IMG/VR virus record: IMGVR_UViG_3300022758_000032
Span: 1-5,897 of that record
DNA: 5,897 bases
Direction: 5' to 3' (one strand)
Source of the DNA: a virus
Shown piece after piece: positions 1-5,897 of this stretch. The position numbers were made by a program, and so were the translations under genes. The notes under the pieces were generated by a model. The model saw only the letters and a list, made by a program, of their open reading frames with translations, did not search any database and was not told the DNA's origin. Each line of letters opens with the position of its first letter. Position 1 is the stretch's first letter.

Positions 1-127
1 ATCTTCTTTTGTTTCTTCTCCTTTCCACTCATGTCTTTTCCCTATTCGTTTTACATATCCTGCTCCTAGTCCTGGAGAACATAATACTTTTCCTGTATAT
101 TCGGGATTGTCTTCGTCTTTTTTTGTC
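1..127. repeat. Terminal redundancy, copy 1. Identical to 5771-5897. This is the overlap that closes a circular contig.
   Basis: Base-for-base identity of 1-127 with 5771-5897, checked by eye over every 10-mer block. The repeat lies inside the Rep reading frame, and joining the ends keeps the frame. Confidence 0.97.
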
Positions 128-657
128 ATGTACTTTGATACGTAGTTTATTGTCTTTTCGTTGCAGTATTTCCCGTTGTAGCAATAACCGTCTATCCAGT
201 TGTTTCTTAGTATGTTTATCAGCTTGAATTGTGTCATTCCGTTTGGTGCATAGAATATTCCGTGCAAATGTATTCTTCTTGTATTGGTGTGCCCTTTTTC
301 TGTTACACACCAGTGTTTCATGCTCTTTCCTGTTTCTTTTCTTATCCTTTCTAGGAATAATCTGTGTATTTTTGTGATTATTTCGTTGTCCGTCTTTAGG
401 TTATACTTTTCTTTGATATAATCGTATCTTTCTGGAGACACCGTTCCCGTGAAGAATATCGCTGTAGGTGTTTCTCTTAGTTGCTCGAAGTTTCTTACTC
501 TCCATGCGTTTCTTTTTTTCTTCCTGCATTCGAAGCAGTATCCGCATTCTACCTCGATATATTTTAGTCGTTCGTCTGTACAAACGGGCGGTTCGTACCC
601 GTTTTTCTTTGTAGGTACAAACCGCTTGTTTTTGATTTTGATGGGAAAGTAGCACAT
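1..657 (-). CDS. VP4: Replication initiation protein (HUH rolling-circle endonuclease; microvirus VP4 / phiX gpA-like). N-terminal 219 codons. The ORF runs off the window start and continues at 5770.
   Basis: Hand translation of the minus frame from ATG 657-655 gives 219 codons with no stop: MCYFPIKIKNKRFVPTKKNGYEPPVCTDERLKYIEVECGYCFECRKKKRNAWRVRNFEQLRETPTAIFFTGTVSPERYDYIKEKYNLKTDNEIITKIHRLFLERIRKETGKSMKHWCVTEKGHTNTRRIHLHGIFYAPNGMTQFKLINILRNNWIDGYCYNGKYCNEKTINYVSKYMTKKDEDNPEYTGKVLCSPGLGAGYVKRIGKRHEWKGEETKED. Microvirus Rep hallmarks: MCxxP N-terminus; Cys cluster C26/C38/C41/C44 (CGYCFECR); motif I IFFTGTV; HUH motif HLHGI (262-270); two-tyrosine catalytic motif YVSKYMTK (121-144), cf. phiX gpA YxxKYxxK. 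The ATG lies 1 nt after the VP2 stop (TGAtATG). Confidence 0.93.
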   Translation of the reverse strand, partial: MCYFPIKIKNKRFVPTKKNGYEPPVCTDERLKYIEVECGYCFECRKKKRNAWRVRNFEQLRETPTAIFFTGTVSPERYDYIKEKYNLKTDNEIITKIHRLFLERIRKETGKSMKHWCVTEKGHTNTRRIHLHGIFYAPNGMTQFKLINILRNNWIDGYCYNGKYCNEKTINYVSKYMTKKDEDNPEYTGKVLCSPGLGAGYVKRIGKRHEWKGEETKED

Positions 658-658
658 A

Positions 659-1792
659 TCAATTTTTGTTTATTACGATTGTTTTTGATTGCTTAGCTAA
701 TGCTTCTAATGCCTCCATTCCGTTCTTTATTTTGCCGACTACTCCTACTATATTGGTAATTTGGTCGATTCCGTTGTATATCCATTCTCTTAGGTTTTTT
801 TGCTCCTCTAGGCTTAGATGCCCTTTGCCGAGTTCATATTCTTTTGCTATTTTGTCGATAGCTGCATCAGCTTGTTTTTTCAGCGCTTCTGCACTTGTTC
901 TTCTTGTTATTGCATCGTACCATAGTATGTCTATTTCTTTTCTTACCTTTGAAGCTTGTGCGTTGGTTAGGTCTATTACCGCTTCTTCTTTTAGTCCTTG
1001 TTTCTGTATCAATGAAAGTTGGTCTGTTACCGTTTGTATTCTTTGCTGCTGCGTCTTGTCCAGATATTCTGTGTTGAGCATTGCTTGGTTAAATTCTTCC
1101 ATTGCTTTTTTTGCATTGGCTTGGGCTTCTTTTATGTTGCTAGATGCAATCTGTTCCCTGCTTTCTTGGACTCTGTTTTCAATCTCTTGCCATTTGATTT
1201 CAAATTCCGTTTTTTTTGTGTCGACTCCGCTTGTTTTTTTGGCTTGTGCAAGAGCTTTTGCTGCTTCTGCTTGGTTAAGTATTGTTTGAGACTTTATCGC
1301 TTCATTTTGCTGCTCTATTTGCTTGTATTGAAGCGCCATTCCTACTGGATTACTTGTTGGCCCGCTTGGTTGTGTTGCTTGTCCGCCTGCCGTGCTTGTG
1401 CTTCCTGCTCCGCTTCCTCCGTACATTAGCGCTGCGCTTAAGCCTGCTTCTTCCATGTGTTTGCGTTGCTGTTCAAAGTTGGTTGATTCCCACATTTCGA
1501 GATTTCTTTTTTGTGCTTCATTTGCAGCCATTTGTCCGTATTGGTATTGCATTCCCATACCTTCCTTTTCGTATTCCCAGGCTTTATCCATTAGCTCTTT
1601 TTGTTCCTTTGTACTATTCCCACTTCCGAATAATCCTCCCAGTAGTCCCAGTCCTCCGCCGATAATTCCGCCGACTGTTGTTCCCAATCCTGGTATTGCA
1701 CTGCCTATTGATGCTCCTTTTGCTGCACCTCCTAGTGCTCCATTGATTCCTAATCCGAAACTCATGATTTTTAAGTTTTTAAAATTTGACAT
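659..1792 (-). CDS. VP2: Minor capsid / DNA pilot protein (microvirus VP2, functional analogue of phiX H).
   Basis: 377-aa ORF with ATG start (a second in-frame ATG is at 1765). It has a glycine-zipper-like hydrophobic N-terminus (GLGINGALGGAAKGASIGSAIPGLGTTVGGIIGGGLGLLGGLFGSG). It carries the conserved VP2-type block EEAGLSAALMYGGSGAG (cf. AGLNPxLxxGG in gokushovirus VP2). The C-terminal half is long, Q/E/K/A-rich and probably coiled-coil. Position is between VP1 and Rep. Confidence 0.85.
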   Translation of the reverse strand: MSNFKNLKIMSFGLGINGALGGAAKGASIGSAIPGLGTTVGGIIGGGLGLLGGLFGSGNSTKEQKELMDKAWEYEKEGMGMQYQYGQMAANEAQKRNLEMWESTNFEQQRKHMEEAGLSAALMYGGSGAGSTSTAGGQATQPSGPTSNPVGMALQYKQIEQQNEAIKSQTILNQAEAAKALAQAKKTSGVDTKKTEFEIKWQEIENRVQESREQIASSNIKEAQANAKKAMEEFNQAMLNTEYLDKTQQQRIQTVTDQLSLIQKQGLKEEAVIDLTNAQASKVRKEIDILWYDAITRRTSAEALKKQADAAIDKIAKEYELGKGHLSLEEQKNLREWIYNGIDQITNIVGVVGKIKNGMEALEALAKQSKTIVINKN

Positions 1793-1830
1793 TCTTCGCG
1801 CTTCTTTCTAAGTAAGCGTTACTATATTAT

Positions 1831-1844
1831 ACTTGATATAATAG
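1831..1844 (+). other. phiX174-origin-like motif ACTTGATATAATAG on the strand antisense to the genes. Function unproven.
   Basis: The phiX174 viral-strand origin core, from memory, is CAACTTG/ATATTAATAAC with gpA nicking after the G. Here ACTTGATAT (9/9) is followed by AATA, allowing a one-T gap. It sits in the largest intergenic region, 1 nt from the base of a nested hairpin. Confidence 0.25.
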
Positions 1845-1845
1845 T

Positions 1846-1922
1846 CTACATGCGTACTGCGCTTTTTGGGCTGGAAAAAGCGGGAATATTATTTGACATC
1901 CCCGCCTTTTTTTTGCATGTAG
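1846..1922. promoter_or_regulatory. Nested stem-loop cluster in the ORF116-VP2 intergenic region. Candidate weak intrinsic terminator on the coding strand and/or ssDNA origin/priming structure.
   Basis: The outer 8-bp inverted repeat CTACATGC (1846-1853) / GCATGTAG (1915-1922) encloses two inner pairings. Hairpin A is CGCTTTTT (1860-1867) / AAAAAGCG (1875-1882) with a 7-nt loop. A competing pairing joins AAAAAGCGGG (1875-1884) to CCCGC(C)TTTTT (1901-1911). On the minus-strand RNA this reads A8-GGCGGGG-loop-CCCGC-UUUUU, which is terminator-like, but the GC stem is only 5 bp and the loop is 16 nt. Confidence 0.4.
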
Positions 1923-1932
1923 TGTTCGAAGC

Positions 1933-2283
1933 TTACGCGGCTGAGTCGTCCCCTGCATTGATTGTCTTATCCGTTGCTGTTTCGCCTTCTTTCGCTTCTT
2001 CCTTCATTTCTGGATTCCGTCCATTCTTCGTGTAATCTGATAACTTGTACGCGTTTACTCTATCCATAGCGTTGATAGCTATCTGCCACTTGTCCGTTCG
2101 TATGTCATATTCTGGTTTTACTCCATCTTCTTTCGGTGTGTATATGAGTGGTGCACCGTCTGTTAATGGTTCGTTCTCATCGAGTATTCTTCTTACTTTT
2201 GTAAGTATGTTTTCACCTTCCTCGTATTTTGTTGGAAATTCTTTGAACGGATTATACCTTGTAAGTCCTTTTTTTCTAAGCAT
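1933..2283 (-). CDS. Conserved-looking small microvirus protein, function unknown. A scaffolding-type role is possible but unproven.
   Basis: 116-aa ORF with ATG start. It begins 11 nt after the VP1 stop, on the same strand as all other genes. The protein has an acidic C-terminal tail (EMKEEAKEGETATDKTINAGDDSAA). The block KEDGVKPEYDIRTDKWQIAINAMD resembles a motif I associate with small proteins of gut microviruses (memory only, not verifiable here). Confidence 0.65.
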   Translation of the reverse strand: MLRKKGLTRYNPFKEFPTKYEEGENILTKVRRILDENEPLTDGAPLIYTPKEDGVKPEYDIRTDKWQIAINAMDRVNAYKLSDYTKNGRNPEMKEEAKEGETATDKTINAGDDSAA

Positions 2284-2294
2284 AGTCGTAAGTT

Positions 2295-4268
2295 TTAAAA
2301 GTTAGGAATTTGTTTTGCTGAATAATTACCGCGTCTCGTGATTTCACAAGCTGTTTGCACCCAAAAGTTCTGGCTATCCAATGCTGTATCTGCAAAGATG
2401 TCGATATGTTCTTGTGGGTTGATGTATGTTGACCCGTTTGAGATTCCGTTGTTATCGTCTCTTTCGTAGTTTCGATTTAATACCATAAAGTCCTCGCTTT
2501 CTCCTGTTGCAAAGTTACCGAATGTTTTGTTAAAGTTTGTCATGTAGTCAATCCATGCAACTGATTTTCCGGGTGTGGTGTCTTTATTTAATTTTGCGTC
2601 TTGTTCTGCTGTCCACCATGCCCGTTGTTCATTCATGAGGTCTTGGTATCCGATACCATCAAGTGCTGGTTTGTGCAAGTCATCCATTGTGAACAAATTC
2701 AAGTCAAAGTCATTTCCTTGTGAATAGTCGACCATTGGAGTGATTGCTACGATACCCATTACATACCCTGGTTCTTCGATTTGGAAATGGAGCCTTCCAC
2801 TTGTGTTCGGTTGTCTTGCATAACCTCTACCTGCTAGCTCTCCTAAAACCTGTCCTTCTGCGTTTCCTGTGGTTGCTACTACTTCATCGAATTCAATCAT
2901 TTGACTCATACCTCCTTGGAATACTGGAGTTTCTGGTCTGTCAAGATATCTTCCTGCTGTATATACGGTTTCCAACCAGTCTCTGTATGTACCTCCTGAA
3001 ACTGCGATACGATTTAGCATGTTATATACTTTTTGTTGCAGGTTGAGTGCATCCATTGTAATTGTACCGTCCTCGTCTGGTTTCAGTGCGGTTACTTTTG
3101 AGATTCCGTTTTCGCCGTCAATCCAATCTGTTTTTACCCAATTGTTGAAAATATCACTGTCATATGTTTTTAATATTAGTCCTCCCAACTTGTTTGTTGA
3201 TGCCATTCTTATTTTTTCAAAAAGATTGTCAACATTAGTATTTCCTGTGTTTGACATATCAAGCTCTGTATTCCCTGGCTTCTTTAGTATCTCGTCACGC
3301 ACACTGTCGAGCGTTTCTAACTTTTGCTCATTCAGTATTGTGTGTAATGAGTTGTTGAATAGTGTTTCGTCTCCTGGAAATTTTCCTACGTAGATACCTT
3401 GTATTGTGGTATATCCATTTAGTGAATTTCCGCTTGAAAATATTGTTGATATTTTATCTGTTGTGATTTTTTTTGTTGCGCTGTTTGATGTTAGGTAATT
3501 AACGTATGCCTCTTTAGTCATGCCATTAGATGGATTGTAAAATCTTATTTTTATACTTTTCCAAAAAGTAGCATAATCTTTTACCTCTGTTCCTGCTTCT
3601 AATGTCGCGGTGTCTTTCATTGGTTCCTGCCAGTTAATTTCGGCGTCTGTATTTACTTTTATTGTTTTTTGTGTTTGGTTTTGCTGGTCTATGGTTACTG
3701 TTGCTTCTGTGCTTCCTGTGATGATATAGAAATTATCTTCTTGCGTGTTTGCGAAGTAGTTTTTGAATATGTCGAGATATATTAATACTGGTATCGCATT
3801 TTTTTTTGGAATGTTTCCCGTATTTTTAGACCTTGCCCCTTTCCATCCTATGTAACTATATAGAGATGACGGGTTAGACTTTACTTCTGCTTTGCCCGTA
3901 TTATATGAACCTCTGCGTATTGTCGGAAACTTGATGTCACTCATCTTCATACCAATTCCTGTCCGATTGTTGTGCAACCAACTGTTGTATAGTCTGAATC
4001 CTGCCGTGAAGATAAAGTGTTGTAGTTTGAAGCTTCCGAATAATGGCCCAAGTGTTGGATGCGTCATTGTTTTGTTTGTCAGCTTGATGTCGAAGATATC
4101 TCCTTTCTGACATACGATTTTCATGAATGGTACGAGCATTCCTACTCCCATTGTACTTCTGAATACGTAACTTAGATTTTGAGAGGACATGTCGTATTCT
4201 CTCAATCTCACCTTCATTTTGTTGTTGTCACCTAAGGTGTTTTTCCCGATAGTTCTTGTAATTGCCAT
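2295..4268 (-). CDS. VP1: Major capsid protein (Microviridae VP1 / phiX F-protein family).
   Basis: 657-aa ORF with ATG start. The N-terminal block YDMSSQNLSYVFRSTMGVGMLVPFMKIVCQKGDIFDI corresponds to the (F/H)DLSH...G.L.P....PGD signature. The C-terminal block YINPQEHIDIFADTALDSQNFWVQTACEITRRGNYSAKQIPNF is typical of the F-protein jelly-roll C-terminus. It is the largest gene, as expected for a microvirus. Confidence 0.97.
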   Translation of the reverse strand: MAITRTIGKNTLGDNNKMKVRLREYDMSSQNLSYVFRSTMGVGMLVPFMKIVCQKGDIFDIKLTNKTMTHPTLGPLFGSFKLQHFIFTAGFRLYNSWLHNNRTGIGMKMSDIKFPTIRRGSYNTGKAEVKSNPSSLYSYIGWKGARSKNTGNIPKKNAIPVLIYLDIFKNYFANTQEDNFYIITGSTEATVTIDQQNQTQKTIKVNTDAEINWQEPMKDTATLEAGTEVKDYATFWKSIKIRFYNPSNGMTKEAYVNYLTSNSATKKITTDKISTIFSSGNSLNGYTTIQGIYVGKFPGDETLFNNSLHTILNEQKLETLDSVRDEILKKPGNTELDMSNTGNTNVDNLFEKIRMASTNKLGGLILKTYDSDIFNNWVKTDWIDGENGISKVTALKPDEDGTITMDALNLQQKVYNMLNRIAVSGGTYRDWLETVYTAGRYLDRPETPVFQGGMSQMIEFDEVVATTGNAEGQVLGELAGRGYARQPNTSGRLHFQIEEPGYVMGIVAITPMVDYSQGNDFDLNLFTMDDLHKPALDGIGYQDLMNEQRAWWTAEQDAKLNKDTTPGKSVAWIDYMTNFNKTFGNFATGESEDFMVLNRNYERDDNNGISNGSTYINPQEHIDIFADTALDSQNFWVQTACEITRRGNYSAKQIPNF

Positions 4269-4274
4269 AATCTT

Positions 4275-4505
4275 TTACTTTTGAATTGTTTCACTTTTGT
4301 TTTCTTCTGATTCTTGAGCGTTCAGCGCTTTGTGTGCCGCATAGGCTATTGTGAATATTAAGTCCCATGGTTTGGTATTAATATACTCCTGTGCTGCTTT
4401 TACCGTTTTGAAATGTTCTTTTGATGCTTGAACATTACCACATACGATTACATAATCGTTTTCTTCCGTGTTCATTGGAAGGATTTTAAAGAAATCTTCT
4501 ACCAT
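4275..4505 (-). CDS. Hypothetical small protein (76 aa) immediately upstream of VP1.
   Basis: ATG start. The stop lies 6 nt before the VP1 ATG. It shares the strand and codon style of its neighbours. No motif I can assign. Confidence 0.6.
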   Translation of the reverse strand: MVEDFFKILPMNTEENDYVIVCGNVQASKEHFKTVKAAQEYINTKPWDLIFTIAYAAHKALNAQESEENKSETIQK

Positions 4506-4517
4506 AATTTTGTAAAT

Positions 4518-4898
4518 TTAAATTGTTAATGTTTCGCTTATTCCCATATGAATAAAAGTCGTATAGTTAATAAGCTCTATAATTTTGAACTCTTTATGAT
4601 TTTCTTTTAGGAATTCAAACATTTTGTTGATGTCCTCTATTTTATCTGTTTTGAAATCTGCTGCTAATCCTCTGGTATGCATTGATTCGTGAACTCCTCC
4701 CACTATGTCGTTTAGTTTTCTGCATCTATATCCGCTGTTGACAAATATAGCTTTTCCTATGTATACTCTTACCATGTCAAGTACATACATTACCTTTTTC
4801 AGGTTTTCGATTACTTCTTCGGTTGGAGTGTTGTCTATATTCTCCAATTTCGCCATTTGCGATTTTGTCATTTCTTTGATAGTAAAGTAGATAGCCAT
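4518..4898 (-). CDS. Zinc D,D- or L,D-peptidase of the M15 family (Peptidase_M15_3 / VanY-like LAS fold). Putative endolysin or entry-associated peptidoglycan hydrolase.
   Basis: 126-aa ORF with ATG start. Family-typical N-terminus F-T-x-x-E...A...I-x-N-x-P (FTIKEMTKSQMAKLENIDNTP). SGYR box (aa 55-58). Exact SxHxxGxAxD zinc-ligand motif SMHTRGLAAD (aa 72-81, nt 4656-4685). Distal His in FIHMG (H117, nt 4548-4550). No signal peptide, TM segment or wall-binding domain. Confidence 0.85.
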   Translation of the reverse strand: MAIYFTIKEMTKSQMAKLENIDNTPTEEVIENLKKVMYVLDMVRVYIGKAIFVNSGYRCRKLNDIVGGVHESMHTRGLAADFKTDKIEDINKMFEFLKENHKEFKIIELINYTTFIHMGISETLTI

Positions 4899-4947
4899 TT
4901 CAGTAATTTGATTAAAATTGTTAATACTTTTTTGATTTTCTCTGTTT

Positions 4948-5238
4948 TCATAATAGTGTAATTATTGTTAGTTGTTTTGCTTTTGCTTTTGCTTGTTCTT
5001 CTTTCCATCTTGAATATGTCTGTTTCTGGAATATTGGTCCTTCTTTTGTGTACTTCATTAGATAGATATCATTGATTACTCCTGTGTTTTTGTCAATTAC
5101 ATCTACTCTGTAGTTTTCCCCTCTTTTCCCTTGGGTGTAAATCTTTCTTTTTATTCCTCTTAGTTCGTTGCATGTGGATGTTTCTCCGTTAATTGTTATC
5201 ATACAAACGCATTCTGTTTTAAATTGACGATGTTTCAT
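4948..5238 (-). CDS. Hypothetical protein, first gene after the promoter. 96 aa from ATG 5238; the track's 106-aa version starts at TTG 5268.
   Basis: The ORF is open from 5268, but the first codon there is TTG and overlaps the putative -7 promoter element. The first ATG is at 5238-5236 (MKHRQFKTECVCMITING...). The termini are basic (KHRQFK, AKAKAKQ). No recognisable family. Confidence 0.55.
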   Translation of the reverse strand: MKHRQFKTECVCMITINGETSTCNELRGIKRKIYTQGKRGENYRVDVIDKNTGVINDIYLMKYTKEGPIFQKQTYSRWKEEQAKAKAKQLTIITLL

Positions 5239-5265
5239 GATTCTTTGTTTTTTTGTTTTCTGCGA

Positions 5266-5297
5266 CAAACATATACAACCTTTTTTAGCCCGACAAA
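5266..5297 (-). promoter_or_regulatory. Bacteroidetes-type promoter: TTTG (-33) - 20 nt - TATGTTTG (-7, consensus TAnnTTTG).
   Basis: The minus strand reads caaataTTTGtcgggctaaaaaaggttgtaTATGTTTGtcgcag. TTTG is at 5297-5294 and TATGTTTG at 5273-5266. The 20-nt spacer falls within the 19-21 nt I recall for Bacteroides primary-sigma promoters. It lies about 28 nt upstream of ATG 5238, in the only non-coding stretch preceding the gene string. Confidence 0.45.
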
Positions 5298-5310
5298 TAT
5301 TTGCCTGGCT
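5287..5310. repeat. Imperfect 24-nt palindrome AGCCcGaCAAATATTTGcCtGGCT (10 of 12 pairs) overlapping the -33 element.
   Basis: Pairs are 5287-5290 with 5307-5310, 5292/5305, and 5294-5298 with 5299-5303. Mismatches are at 5291/5306 and 5293/5304. It could be an operator or an ssDNA hairpin. Confidence 0.5.
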
Positions 5311-5328
5311 TTAACATTAAATTAACAT
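5311..5328. repeat. Two direct copies of TTAACAT (minus strand ATGTTAA), spaced 11 nt start to start.
   Basis: TTAACAT at 5311-5317 and 5322-5328. On the coding strand these read ATGTTAAt and ATGTTAAa, matching the core of the canonical XerD arm of dif (TTATGTTAAAT). Confidence 0.6.
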
Positions 5329-5333
5329 GTATA

Positions 5334-5350
5334 TAACTTTTAGTAACTTT
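5334..5350. repeat. Two direct copies of TAACTTT spaced 10 nt start to start, just downstream of the Rep stop.
   Basis: TAACTTT at 5334-5340 and 5344-5350. The spacing is one helical turn, in a non-coding region. Confidence 0.55.
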
Positions 5351-5359
5351 CCGTCGCCG

Positions 5360-5897
5360 CTATACCCTTAAATAATATATTTCCTGTTCGTATATCTTTT
5401 TAAATTCTTCGATATCTTTTGCTAGTTTTATGTTGTTGTTTATTTCTTTTCTTAATTCTTTCCCGTATAGCTCGAAGAGTCTCTGTGCCTTACTTTTTTT
5501 GTTTTTATCTCTTCTGTTTTGTAATTTTTTGATAATGATTTCTTTGATATCGTCTTTATGTGTTTTTATTCCATCTTCATTGTGTTGTTTTCTTAGCGTG
5601 TTATAGTATTCTTCGCTTTCTTCATCTGTGATTTTTATTTTGAAGTTTCCCACAAACTTTTCTCCAGAGTTTTCTCGATATATCCATAGTTGTTCTCTCT
5701 GTTCTTCTGTAAAAAGTTTGTATTTGTAATACTTTGGTAGTGCTATATATGTCCCTTGTCTTGTATAGTAATCTTCTTTTGTTTCTTCTCCTTTCCACTC
5801 ATGTCTTTTCCCTATTCGTTTTACATATCCTGCTCCTAGTCCTGGAGAACATAATACTTTTCCTGTATATTCGGGATTGTCTTCGTCTTTTTTTGTC
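5360..5897 (-). CDS. VP4: Replication initiation protein VP4, C-terminal part. The unique portion is 5360-5770; 5771-5897 duplicates 1-127. Full gene = join(657..1, 5770..5360), 355 aa.
   Basis: The frame is open from the window end down to TAG at 5362-5360. It is in phase with the 1-657 segment across the junction (5770-5653 = 117 nt). Translation continues ...KED/YYTRQGTYIALPKYYKYKLFTEEQREQLWIYRENSGEKFVGNFKIKITDEE...YYLRV*. The 97-aa track ORF (5360-5653) only reflects the first GTG in this open frame. Confidence 0.9.
   Translation of the reverse strand, partial: TKKDEDNPEYTGKVLCSPGLGAGYVKRIGKRHEWKGEETKEDYYTRQGTYIALPKYYKYKLFTEEQREQLWIYRENSGEKFVGNFKIKITDEESEEYYNTLRKQHNEDGIKTHKDDIKEIIIKKLQNRRDKNKKSKAQRLFELYGKELRKEINNNIKLAKDIEEFKKIYEQEIYYLRV
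5771..5897. repeat. Terminal redundancy, copy 2. Identical to 1-127. True genome unit is 1-5770.
   Basis: Same as copy 1. A 127-nt overlap is the length typically left by de Bruijn assemblers on circular molecules. Confidence 0.97.

Follow-up and report, generated by a model that had tools for sequence, protein, structure and literature searches.

A putative M15_3-family endolysin and a variable gene slot upstream of the capsid gene in a gut microvirus genome

The M15 gene and its product

The window analysed here covers positions 1 to 5,897 of IMG/VR virus record IMGVR_UViG_3300022758_000032 (5,897 nucleotides, nt), and the gene under study is an open reading frame (ORF) at positions 4518..4898 (minus strand) that codes for a peptidase of 126 amino acids (aa), in the following called M15. 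The stretch ends in identical direct repeats of 127 nt and thus represents a complete circular genome of 5,770 nt with a GC content of 37%. The coding strand is the minus strand for every gene of this microvirus. The genes lie in the order Rep, orf96, p27, M15, orf76, capsid, VP3-like and pilot VP2, with orf96-p27-M15-orf76-capsid forming a tight late operon. An earlier note on this DNA, made from the letters alone, had given the right coordinates for M15 without stating a strand; plus-strand translation of 4518-4898 yields many stops, and the ORF runs from ATG to stop on the minus strand.

Judging from its sequence, the product is very probably a zinc peptidase of the M15_3 family. It was matched by the Pfam model Peptidase_M15_3 (PF08291) with 67.9 bits (gathering score 23.2; E = 1e-18), with residues 4-118 aligned to positions 2-107 of the 108-position profile, i.e. 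as an end-to-end, single domain of the LAS/M15_3 type, and by the PHROG family phrog_894 ('endolysin') with E = 1.8e-26. The motifs by which the earlier note had recognised an M15/LAS product are all in place: SMHTRGLAAD at residues 72-81, FIHMG at 115-119, the SGYR box at 55-58 (4736-4725, minus strand) and the N-terminal block as F5/E9/A16/N23/P25. The codons of the zinc ligands were read on the DNA (H74, 4679-4677; D81, 4658-4656; H117, 4550-4548; all minus strand); the conserved acidic residue E108 lies at 4577-4575 (minus strand). Neither the 29 close homologues nor the 10 distant ones (down to 38% identity) show any change at S55, R58, H74, D81 or H117, and every sequence of the distant alignment, termed A3 (10 sequences), has an acidic residue (E or D) at position 108.

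A sequence search of the PDB returned the Streptomyces albus enzyme 1LBU alone (E = 0.08 with the single protein, E = 5.5e-5 with a profile). This zinc D-Ala-D-Ala carboxypeptidase, the founding structure of MEROPS M15A, is 22% identical to M15; its residues H154 and D161, which belong to the three that hold its zinc, correspond to H74 and D81 in the alignment, as does its GFRS to SGYR. 1LBU has an extra N-terminal wall-binding domain, and its substrate preference is not transferable to M15. When an AlphaFold2 (AF2) model of M15 was searched against the PDB, the top matches were 9flk, 1lbu, 4mph, 8q2g and 5hnm, all of LAS/M15 fold at modest template-modelling (TM) scores of 0.43-0.58 and corresponding to the VldE C-domain, 1LBU (ranked second, probability 1.0), LdcB, LysECD7 and VanY. 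Matches in BFVD were closer (TM score 0.75-0.78, E = 1.7e-10) and comprised microvirus and Caudovirales entries named 'Peptidase M15A', among them near-identical folds labelled 'Peptidase M15A [Microvirus mar50/52/54/59]'. The profile and structure searches proposed in the earlier note thus agreed on family and fold, with the His-Asp-His site intact in the sequence. A T5-type L-Ala-D-Glu peptidase, also named there as a check, was matched at fold level only (8q2g, E = 0.067, TM score 0.48): M15 has no sequence match to the M15C enzymes EndoT5, LysECD7 and LysPH, and an assignment to this group was rejected. In T5-type M15C enzymes such as LysPH, His/Asp/His is joined by a catalytic Asp at position -3 from the last His; the close homologues of M15 have Thr, Lys, Asn or Ser at the corresponding place before H117.

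The ratio of nonsynonymous to synonymous polymorphism (pN/pS), computed on 126-codon sequences only, was 0.37 in the M15 frame and 0.61 and 1.32 out of frame, which indicates purifying selection. The 381-nt gene takes up ~7% of the coding capacity of the 5.8-kb genome. No hydrophobic segment was found at the N-terminus of M15, and the protein therefore has no signal or signal-anchor-release (SAR) sequence, in line with the earlier note.

Relatives of the peptidase and earlier reports

In the protein database, 440 homologues of M15 were found, the best 120 of which are 77-99% identical and situated nearly all on contigs of 5.8-6.0 kb; the gene order was the same in all homologue contigs fetched. 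Some homologues already bear the names 'peptidase [Microviridae sp.]' (79% identical, NR) or 'zinc D-Ala-D-Ala carboxypeptidase', and at least ~100 microviruses deposited in GenBank carry a homologue annotated 'peptidase'. Outside its own clade, M15 finds its best matches in endolysins, both from tailed Bacteroides phages (40-48% identity) and from crAss-like phages, and in IMG/VR the nearest 80 relatives lie almost all on contigs of 24-200 kb. Among bacterial relatives (one genome per species), the best 80 of 498 are overwhelmingly from Bacteroidales (39-56% identity); these 80 loci contain no microvirus capsid or Rep gene, so that no prophage copies of microviruses were found among them.

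The assignment to a phage-endolysin type, made in the earlier note, is borne out by these tailed-phage relatives. Those of the Bacteroides phages (B124-14 ORF017, B40-8, BF3-TP1 gp15 and BKR1 gp39) and gp11 of the crAss-like phage cr4_1 are 40-48% identical to M15 and share with it a single domain of ~130 aa, the F..E..S..A..IDNTP block, SGYR, S.H..G.AAD and the distal His. In the tailed phages, the gene stands between a holin-like gene with three transmembrane segments and a gene for a ~200-aa protein with an N-terminal membrane anchor, whereas the microvirus has neither: it has retained only the enzyme from a lysis cassette of the tailed-phage type. The microvirus protein also lacks the last ~10 residues of the tailed-phage and bacterial copies. 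The endolysin of cr4_1 (1995-2390) and its neighbours contain in-frame stops under table 11, a pattern that fits stop-codon reassignment. The best tblastn match (47%), MT838663, was considered as a sister microvirus and rejected, being a fragment of a tailed phage. In this 5-kb record, labelled 'Bacteriophage sp.' (MT838663.1; L012), the M15 gene (4458-4856) precedes an ORF of 129 aa whose product starts with a lipoprotein signal and has a transmembrane helix at its C-terminus, resembling a unimolecular spanin.

A distance tree held the window clade together in 34/40 bootstraps and, with weak support (26/40), grouped it with three other microvirus peptidases despite their lower raw identity; to the peptidases of bajarodmic microviruses, M15 of the window clade is only 37-41% identical. 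Microvirus copies carry the C-terminal signature Y-x-TF-x-H, as against FSWVHVSY in tailed-phage and bacterial copies (alignment A3: window, L013, L014 and L103-L105 versus L012, L092, L093 and L107). The grouping and the shared signature hint at a spread between microviruses instead of separate captures. Weakly supported as it is, the grouping would fit the exchange of peptidases between microviruses noted by Kirchberger et al. (PMC9239249). The three other M15 microviruses inspected agree with the window in position class, their gene likewise lying between Rep and capsid. In bajarodmic virus 539 (L103), the peptidase (5431-6078) is extended at its N-terminus by 95 aa that include no membrane segment, and there is an overlap with the end of Rep; the capsid gene of this record is annotated as 'spliced'.

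A muralytic enzyme in a microvirus, for which the earlier note had implied novelty while asking that it be checked, is correct and has been known since 2012. M15_3 peptidases were reported in 11 human-associated microviruses (5 gokushoviruses and 6 alpaviruses) by Roux et al. 2012 (PMC3394797), who showed their horizontal transfer and proposed a role as endolysins; M15 shares with them PF08291, the kind of host genome, the proposed lysis role and the evidence of horizontal origin. Peptidases are described as a standard lysis-associated accessory gene of microviruses by Kirchberger et al. 2022 (PMC9239249) and occur, with the same proposed role, in cultured marine microviruses, namely Occultatumvirinae roseophages (PMC11499846) and the Amoyvirinae phage vB_RpoMi-Mini (PMC9865509). 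With these papers and the database annotation, the central claim is already known. None of the papers mentions a p27-like partner ORF or the displacement of a lipoprotein gene, and the newer aspect is the comparative pattern of the slot around M15, not the enzyme itself.

The variable slot, p27 and the remaining genes

The surroundings of M15 were compared in 91 genomes of the lineage (capsid identity 42-87%), gathered by an alignment-based capsid search, which was needed since a search with a single protein of the locus returned just one IMG/VR relative. The 76-aa orf76 (4275..4505, minus strand), which adjoins the capsid gene upstream, stands directly upstream of the capsid gene in 89/91 genomes and marks the downstream edge of a variable slot. 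M15 was found in nine of the 91 genomes, all in the window clade, which answers the survey of related microviruses suggested in the earlier note. Immediately upstream of orf76, 76 genomes instead carry a small lipoprotein-like gene, and no genome (0/91) has both M15/p27 and the lipoprotein. M15 thus occupies the slot where most relatives carry the lipoprotein-like gene.

Behind its basic N-terminus and a hydrophobic helix, the lipoprotein-like protein (56-72 aa) has a conserved mature part of ~38 aa, and a lipobox-like Cys occurs in 73/76 cases (AQSC in 29, VQSC in 28, also TTAC, LQAC, GVSC, LGGC and others). Examples lie at 5747-5953 in L007, 5612-5800 in L009 and 5598-5804 in L011, with ~70 more in L015-L091 (e.g. 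MDKKKIIYEIIKIICTAIISIAAVLTAQSC/TMSLSVSKNNSNSTQKTEQTTTSSVDSTQININPKK). More than 551 clusters of the protein database belong to the family, nearly all on contigs of ~6 kb; Pfam gave no domain for it, 'hypothetical protein [Microviridae sp.]' is the only name that it bears, its transmembrane segment gave weak, sub-threshold holin matches only, and a literature search found no paper linking gut microviruses with such a lipoprotein. Several genomes depart from the common arrangement. L052, L054 and L062 have an extra 30-aa ORF with a strong transmembrane helix (MPREVFGIVILLLIIAFIGGSYLYIKNGNL) directly before the lipoprotein gene (~90 nt upstream), and L061 has two tandem copies of the gene (at offsets of 1091 and 1391 after Rep). 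The lipoprotein ORFs of L046 and L081 differ from the rest past the helix, where they are truncated or altered, and in L008 and L030 an ATG-started ORF covers the mature part only, suggesting a frameshift or an alternative start.

A third occupant is a cationic amphipathic peptide of 31 aa (p31, MKKGWKIVITILKVIVKTVESIFDKKNEPNN), which is the sole gene in the slot, with neither enzyme nor lipoprotein, in Dulem virus 214 (L010, 5461-5556; coding sequence XCD03934.1) and in L039. Its amphipathicity, like that of p27, exceeds what its composition predicts, as judged from shuffled sequences. In the capsid tree, the lipoprotein state is ancestral; the genomes with p27+M15 form one monophyletic clade and those with the 31-aa peptide another (50/50 for each), and the two are not sisters. 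The lipoprotein was therefore replaced twice.

The second element of the window's slot, p27, was found in the apparent 49-nt gap between orf96 (96 aa; 4948..5238, minus strand) and M15, which is filled by an ORF of 27 codons (4951-4868, minus strand; MKTEKIKKVLTILIKLLKWLSTLLSKK). Its ATG overlaps the TGA of orf96 as ATGA, an overlap that is retained, and its last 31 nt (10 codons) overlap the start of M15, whose frame is -1 relative to p27. The frame is open in 12/12 unique sequences of the window clade. Its pN/pS was 0.31 in its own frame and 0.52 and 0.63 in the other frames, values derived from 16 non-overlapped codons in 12 related sequences. Leu13 and Leu17 are invariant while being encoded by 2 and 4 synonymous codons, respectively, and the replacements observed are conservative (K/R, I/V/L/A, E/D). 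The peptide has a net charge of +7, a hydrophobic moment (muH) of 0.57 and a mean hydrophobicity of 0.34 (melittin: 0.55/0.30), and the muH of its 20-residue core was reached by 0.1% of shuffles (fraction 0.001), likewise for six other variants. When the coding strand was scanned, p27 and the Gly-rich N-terminus of VP2 were the only membrane-type candidates, and p27 is accordingly listed as a conserved ORF and candidate membrane-active partner of M15. The earlier note saw neither a holin nor an overprinted gene of the E type here, a statement that has become doubtful with this conserved frame, partly overprinted on the M15 start.

Several other identities of p27 were tried and rejected. An extended form of 46 aa is contradicted by a stop in L095, three codons upstream of the conserved ATG, and a programmed p27-M15 frameshift fusion, which would yield a membrane-tethered enzyme, by the lack of an X_XXY_YYZ slippery heptamer in the 31-nt overlap (AAATGGCTATCTACTTTACTATCAAAGAAATGA). 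A DNA-binding protein of the J/VP8 type does not agree with a composition of about half Leu/Ile/Val or with the lack of an equivalent in the lipoprotein-bearing relatives. The idea that p27 is left over from the lipoprotein signal peptide, with which it shares an (I/L)TIL core, was not supported by a profile test against shuffles (117/500, 39/500, 5/500, 60/500, 75/500 and 244/500 scoring as well), and in the comparison with p31, 104/1000 and 542/1000 shuffles scored as well. No homology above shuffles was thus detected among p27, p31 and the lipoprotein signal peptide, which share position, size and chemistry only.

Lysis by phiX174 depends on the single gene E, whose product inhibits MraY and contains a true transmembrane helix. 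Like E, p27 is a small lysis-related candidate in a microvirus and partly overprinted, whereas it is amphipathic and rich in lysine, overprinted in its last 10 codons only and accompanied by an enzyme. It was rejected as an E-type protein given Lys15 and Lys18 inside the helix and a muH of 0.57 versus 0.25 for the E transmembrane domain. Closer in character is the 56-aa 'disruptin' gp28 of phiKT, which acts on the outer membrane alongside a holin (bioRxiv 10.1101/515445). Both peptides are small, have a charge of +7, an amphipathic helix and no membrane-targeting signal, lie by lysis genes and resemble antimicrobial peptides; they have no sequence similarity, and p27, with its 27 aa, is the shorter and more hydrophobic of the two and would have to do without a holin. 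The descriptive disruptin criteria (fewer than 80 aa, a charge of at least +4, an amphipathic helix and a position beside lysis genes) also apply to p27, a likeness that is not evidence of function.

The remaining genes fit a member of the Microviridae (Petitvirales), i.e. a circle of ~4-7 kb with an F-type capsid, a pilot protein and Rep encoded on one strand, and the earlier description as a 5.8-kb microvirus holds. The major capsid protein VP1/F (657 aa; 2295..4268, minus strand) was matched by Pfam Phage_F (27.7 bits) and phrog_514 (E = 8e-33). It is followed by a VP3-like protein of 116 aa in the position of the internal scaffold (1933..2283, minus strand), so labelled by position only and kept in 88/91 relatives, and by the DNA pilot protein VP2 (659..1792, minus strand), whose longest ORF has 377 aa, relatives starting at MSFGLG (342 aa). 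Through its Gly-rich hydrophobic N-terminus, VP2 (residues 15-195) matches the PHROG entries 'endolysin' (phrog_10341, E = 8e-10) and 'tail associated lysin'; the label does not denote a catalytic domain and could mislead automated annotation. Rep/VP4 (355 aa) was recovered from the circularised ORF as an N-terminal part (1..657, minus strand) and a C-terminal part (5360..5770, minus strand); the Rep proteins of relatives contain PF23343 (REP_ORF2-G2P). Positions 5771..5897 exactly repeat 1-127 and represent the assembly overlap of a circular contig (typical k = 127), not a biological repeat; it is the reason why the Rep gene is divided between the two ends of the window and missing from the plain ORF list. 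The product of orf96, upstream of p27, has a KY.KEGPIF motif and occurs in only 13/91 related genomes, and orf76 has a conserved W(D/N)LI motif, with a weak, sub-threshold match to DUF7945 as its sole domain match. An Rfam search of the window gave no matches. When the complete genome was compared by megablast with 50,697 phage records, no near-identical genome was detected, and the nearest GenBank capsid is ~55% identical; the deposited phage records contain no member of the window clade. An assignment to Alpavirinae/'Family 5' is suggested by the gut source, by the relatives and by the affinity of M15 to Bacteroidales.

Interpretation and alternatives

The reading that we favour, with a probability of roughly 70%, is that M15 was captured horizontally and would serve as the wall-degrading lysis enzyme, or endolysin, of a gut microvirus, whose host is probably a member of the Bacteroidales. 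A Zn2+ ion held by H74, D81 and H117 would activate a water molecule for cleavage of an amide bond in the stem peptide or the cross-link, so that the sacculus would be weakened late in infection. Since M15 has no signal sequence, its access to the wall may come from p27, which, translated just before M15, might permeabilise the inner membrane in a holin-like or disruptin-like manner and perhaps also destabilise the outer membrane. This role of p27 as the access factor of M15 is put forward tentatively, on its conserved frame, its chemistry and the precedent of phiKT gp28, and with the odds somewhat against it. Taken further, these ideas suggest a dedicated envelope-attack slot between Rep and orf76-capsid, in which the lipoprotein would be the lysis (or exclusion) protein of alpavirus-like phages, the window clade would have swapped it for a module of p27, translationally coupled to and overprinted on the signal-less M15, and a second lineage would have exchanged it for the 31-aa peptide alone; as a whole, this extended scheme is rather unlikely.

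A number of observations weigh against one or another part of this picture. On the side of the enzyme, the second LAS motif is F-x-H and not H-x-H, and the AF2 model is of moderate quality (predicted local distance difference test, pLDDT, 75.9), the metal site being read from the sequence. Identity with MepK (NCBIfam NF053624) was rejected at 19.4 bits against a cutoff of 185, which leaves a distant relationship only, and MepK specificity therefore cannot be assumed. In the literature searched, no experiment on an M15 peptidase from a microvirus was found. On the side of access to the wall, a scan of the window genome found no canonical holin, spanin, signal or SAR sequence, and p27 itself was called by no gene caller, in the window or in relatives, and had neither a family match nor a detectable homologue. 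In the bajarodmic viruses 539, 578 and 721, the peptidase and one annotated neighbour contain no membrane segment (the scan did not extend to unannotated small ORFs), and p27 therefore cannot be the general solution. The slot may also be a hot spot for accessory genes, in which case replacement of the lipoprotein need not mean equal function.

Much of this bears on p27, and it is unlikely, though by no means far-fetched, that p27 is non-functional, either as a chance-open or leftover frame or with its conservation due to the translation-initiation region of M15; the enzyme would then reach the wall via host factors, through membrane damage from virion assembly or from VP2, or by stochastic leakage. 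The short non-overlapped stretch of 16-17 codons, the lack of a gene-caller report or family match and the other M15 microviruses without a membrane segment in the peptidase or the annotated neighbour checked all speak for this, and the openness of the frame in all 12 sequences is weak evidence because they are related. It is at odds with the lowest pN/pS lying in p27's own frame, the synonymous Leu codons, the conservative replacements, the ATGA overlap that has been kept and an amphipathic arrangement that is both preserved and non-random. The opposite view, that p27 is the main lysis effector, either membrane-active or blocking the precursor pathway, and that M15 only speeds or completes wall breakdown, is improbable. 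It would account for p31 standing alone in the slot of Dulem virus 214 and L039, for both peptides being more amphipathic than their composition predicts and for selection on p27 being about as strong as on M15; against this, p27 and p31 are not demonstrably homologous, p27 is amphipathic with lysines, unlike the transmembrane domain of phiX174 E, and M15 is kept in every clade member seen.

Two further proposals concern M15 alone. That it is a dispensable passenger with a non-lytic role, such as wall remodelling or phage exclusion, appears very improbable: its patchy distribution and the repeated gain and exchange of peptidases among microviruses would suit a passenger, but hundreds of variants keep the gene whole and its catalytic site unchanged despite the coding cost of ~7%, and it displaced the gene otherwise occupying the slot. 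A virion-associated enzyme for DNA delivery is scarcely credible, and the wall-digesting entry factor offered as an alternative in the earlier note found no support here. M15A-type domains do occur in very large, structural-looking phage proteins (905-1,191 aa); M15, however, is free-standing with its 126 aa and unfused to any structural protein, and its nearest relatives are endolysins from tailed-phage cassettes. Microvirus entry is attributed to the pilot protein VP2/H. Since 82/91 close relatives do without M15, the conserved entry apparatus does not include it.

Microviruses of this kind are among the most abundant single-stranded DNA viruses in human and animal guts. If p27 lets a signal-less endolysin reach the wall, it would provide a compact alternative to holins, and p27 and M15 would, if this is true, constitute the smallest holin-free endolysin system described and a ready-made peptide/enzyme pair active against Bacteroidales. 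The three mutually exclusive occupants of the slot, i.e. the small lipoprotein, the 31-aa peptide and the 27-aa peptide with M15, represent very small and easily synthesised lysis candidates, and the pattern in which they replace one another bears on how microviruses other than the phiX type lyse their hosts.

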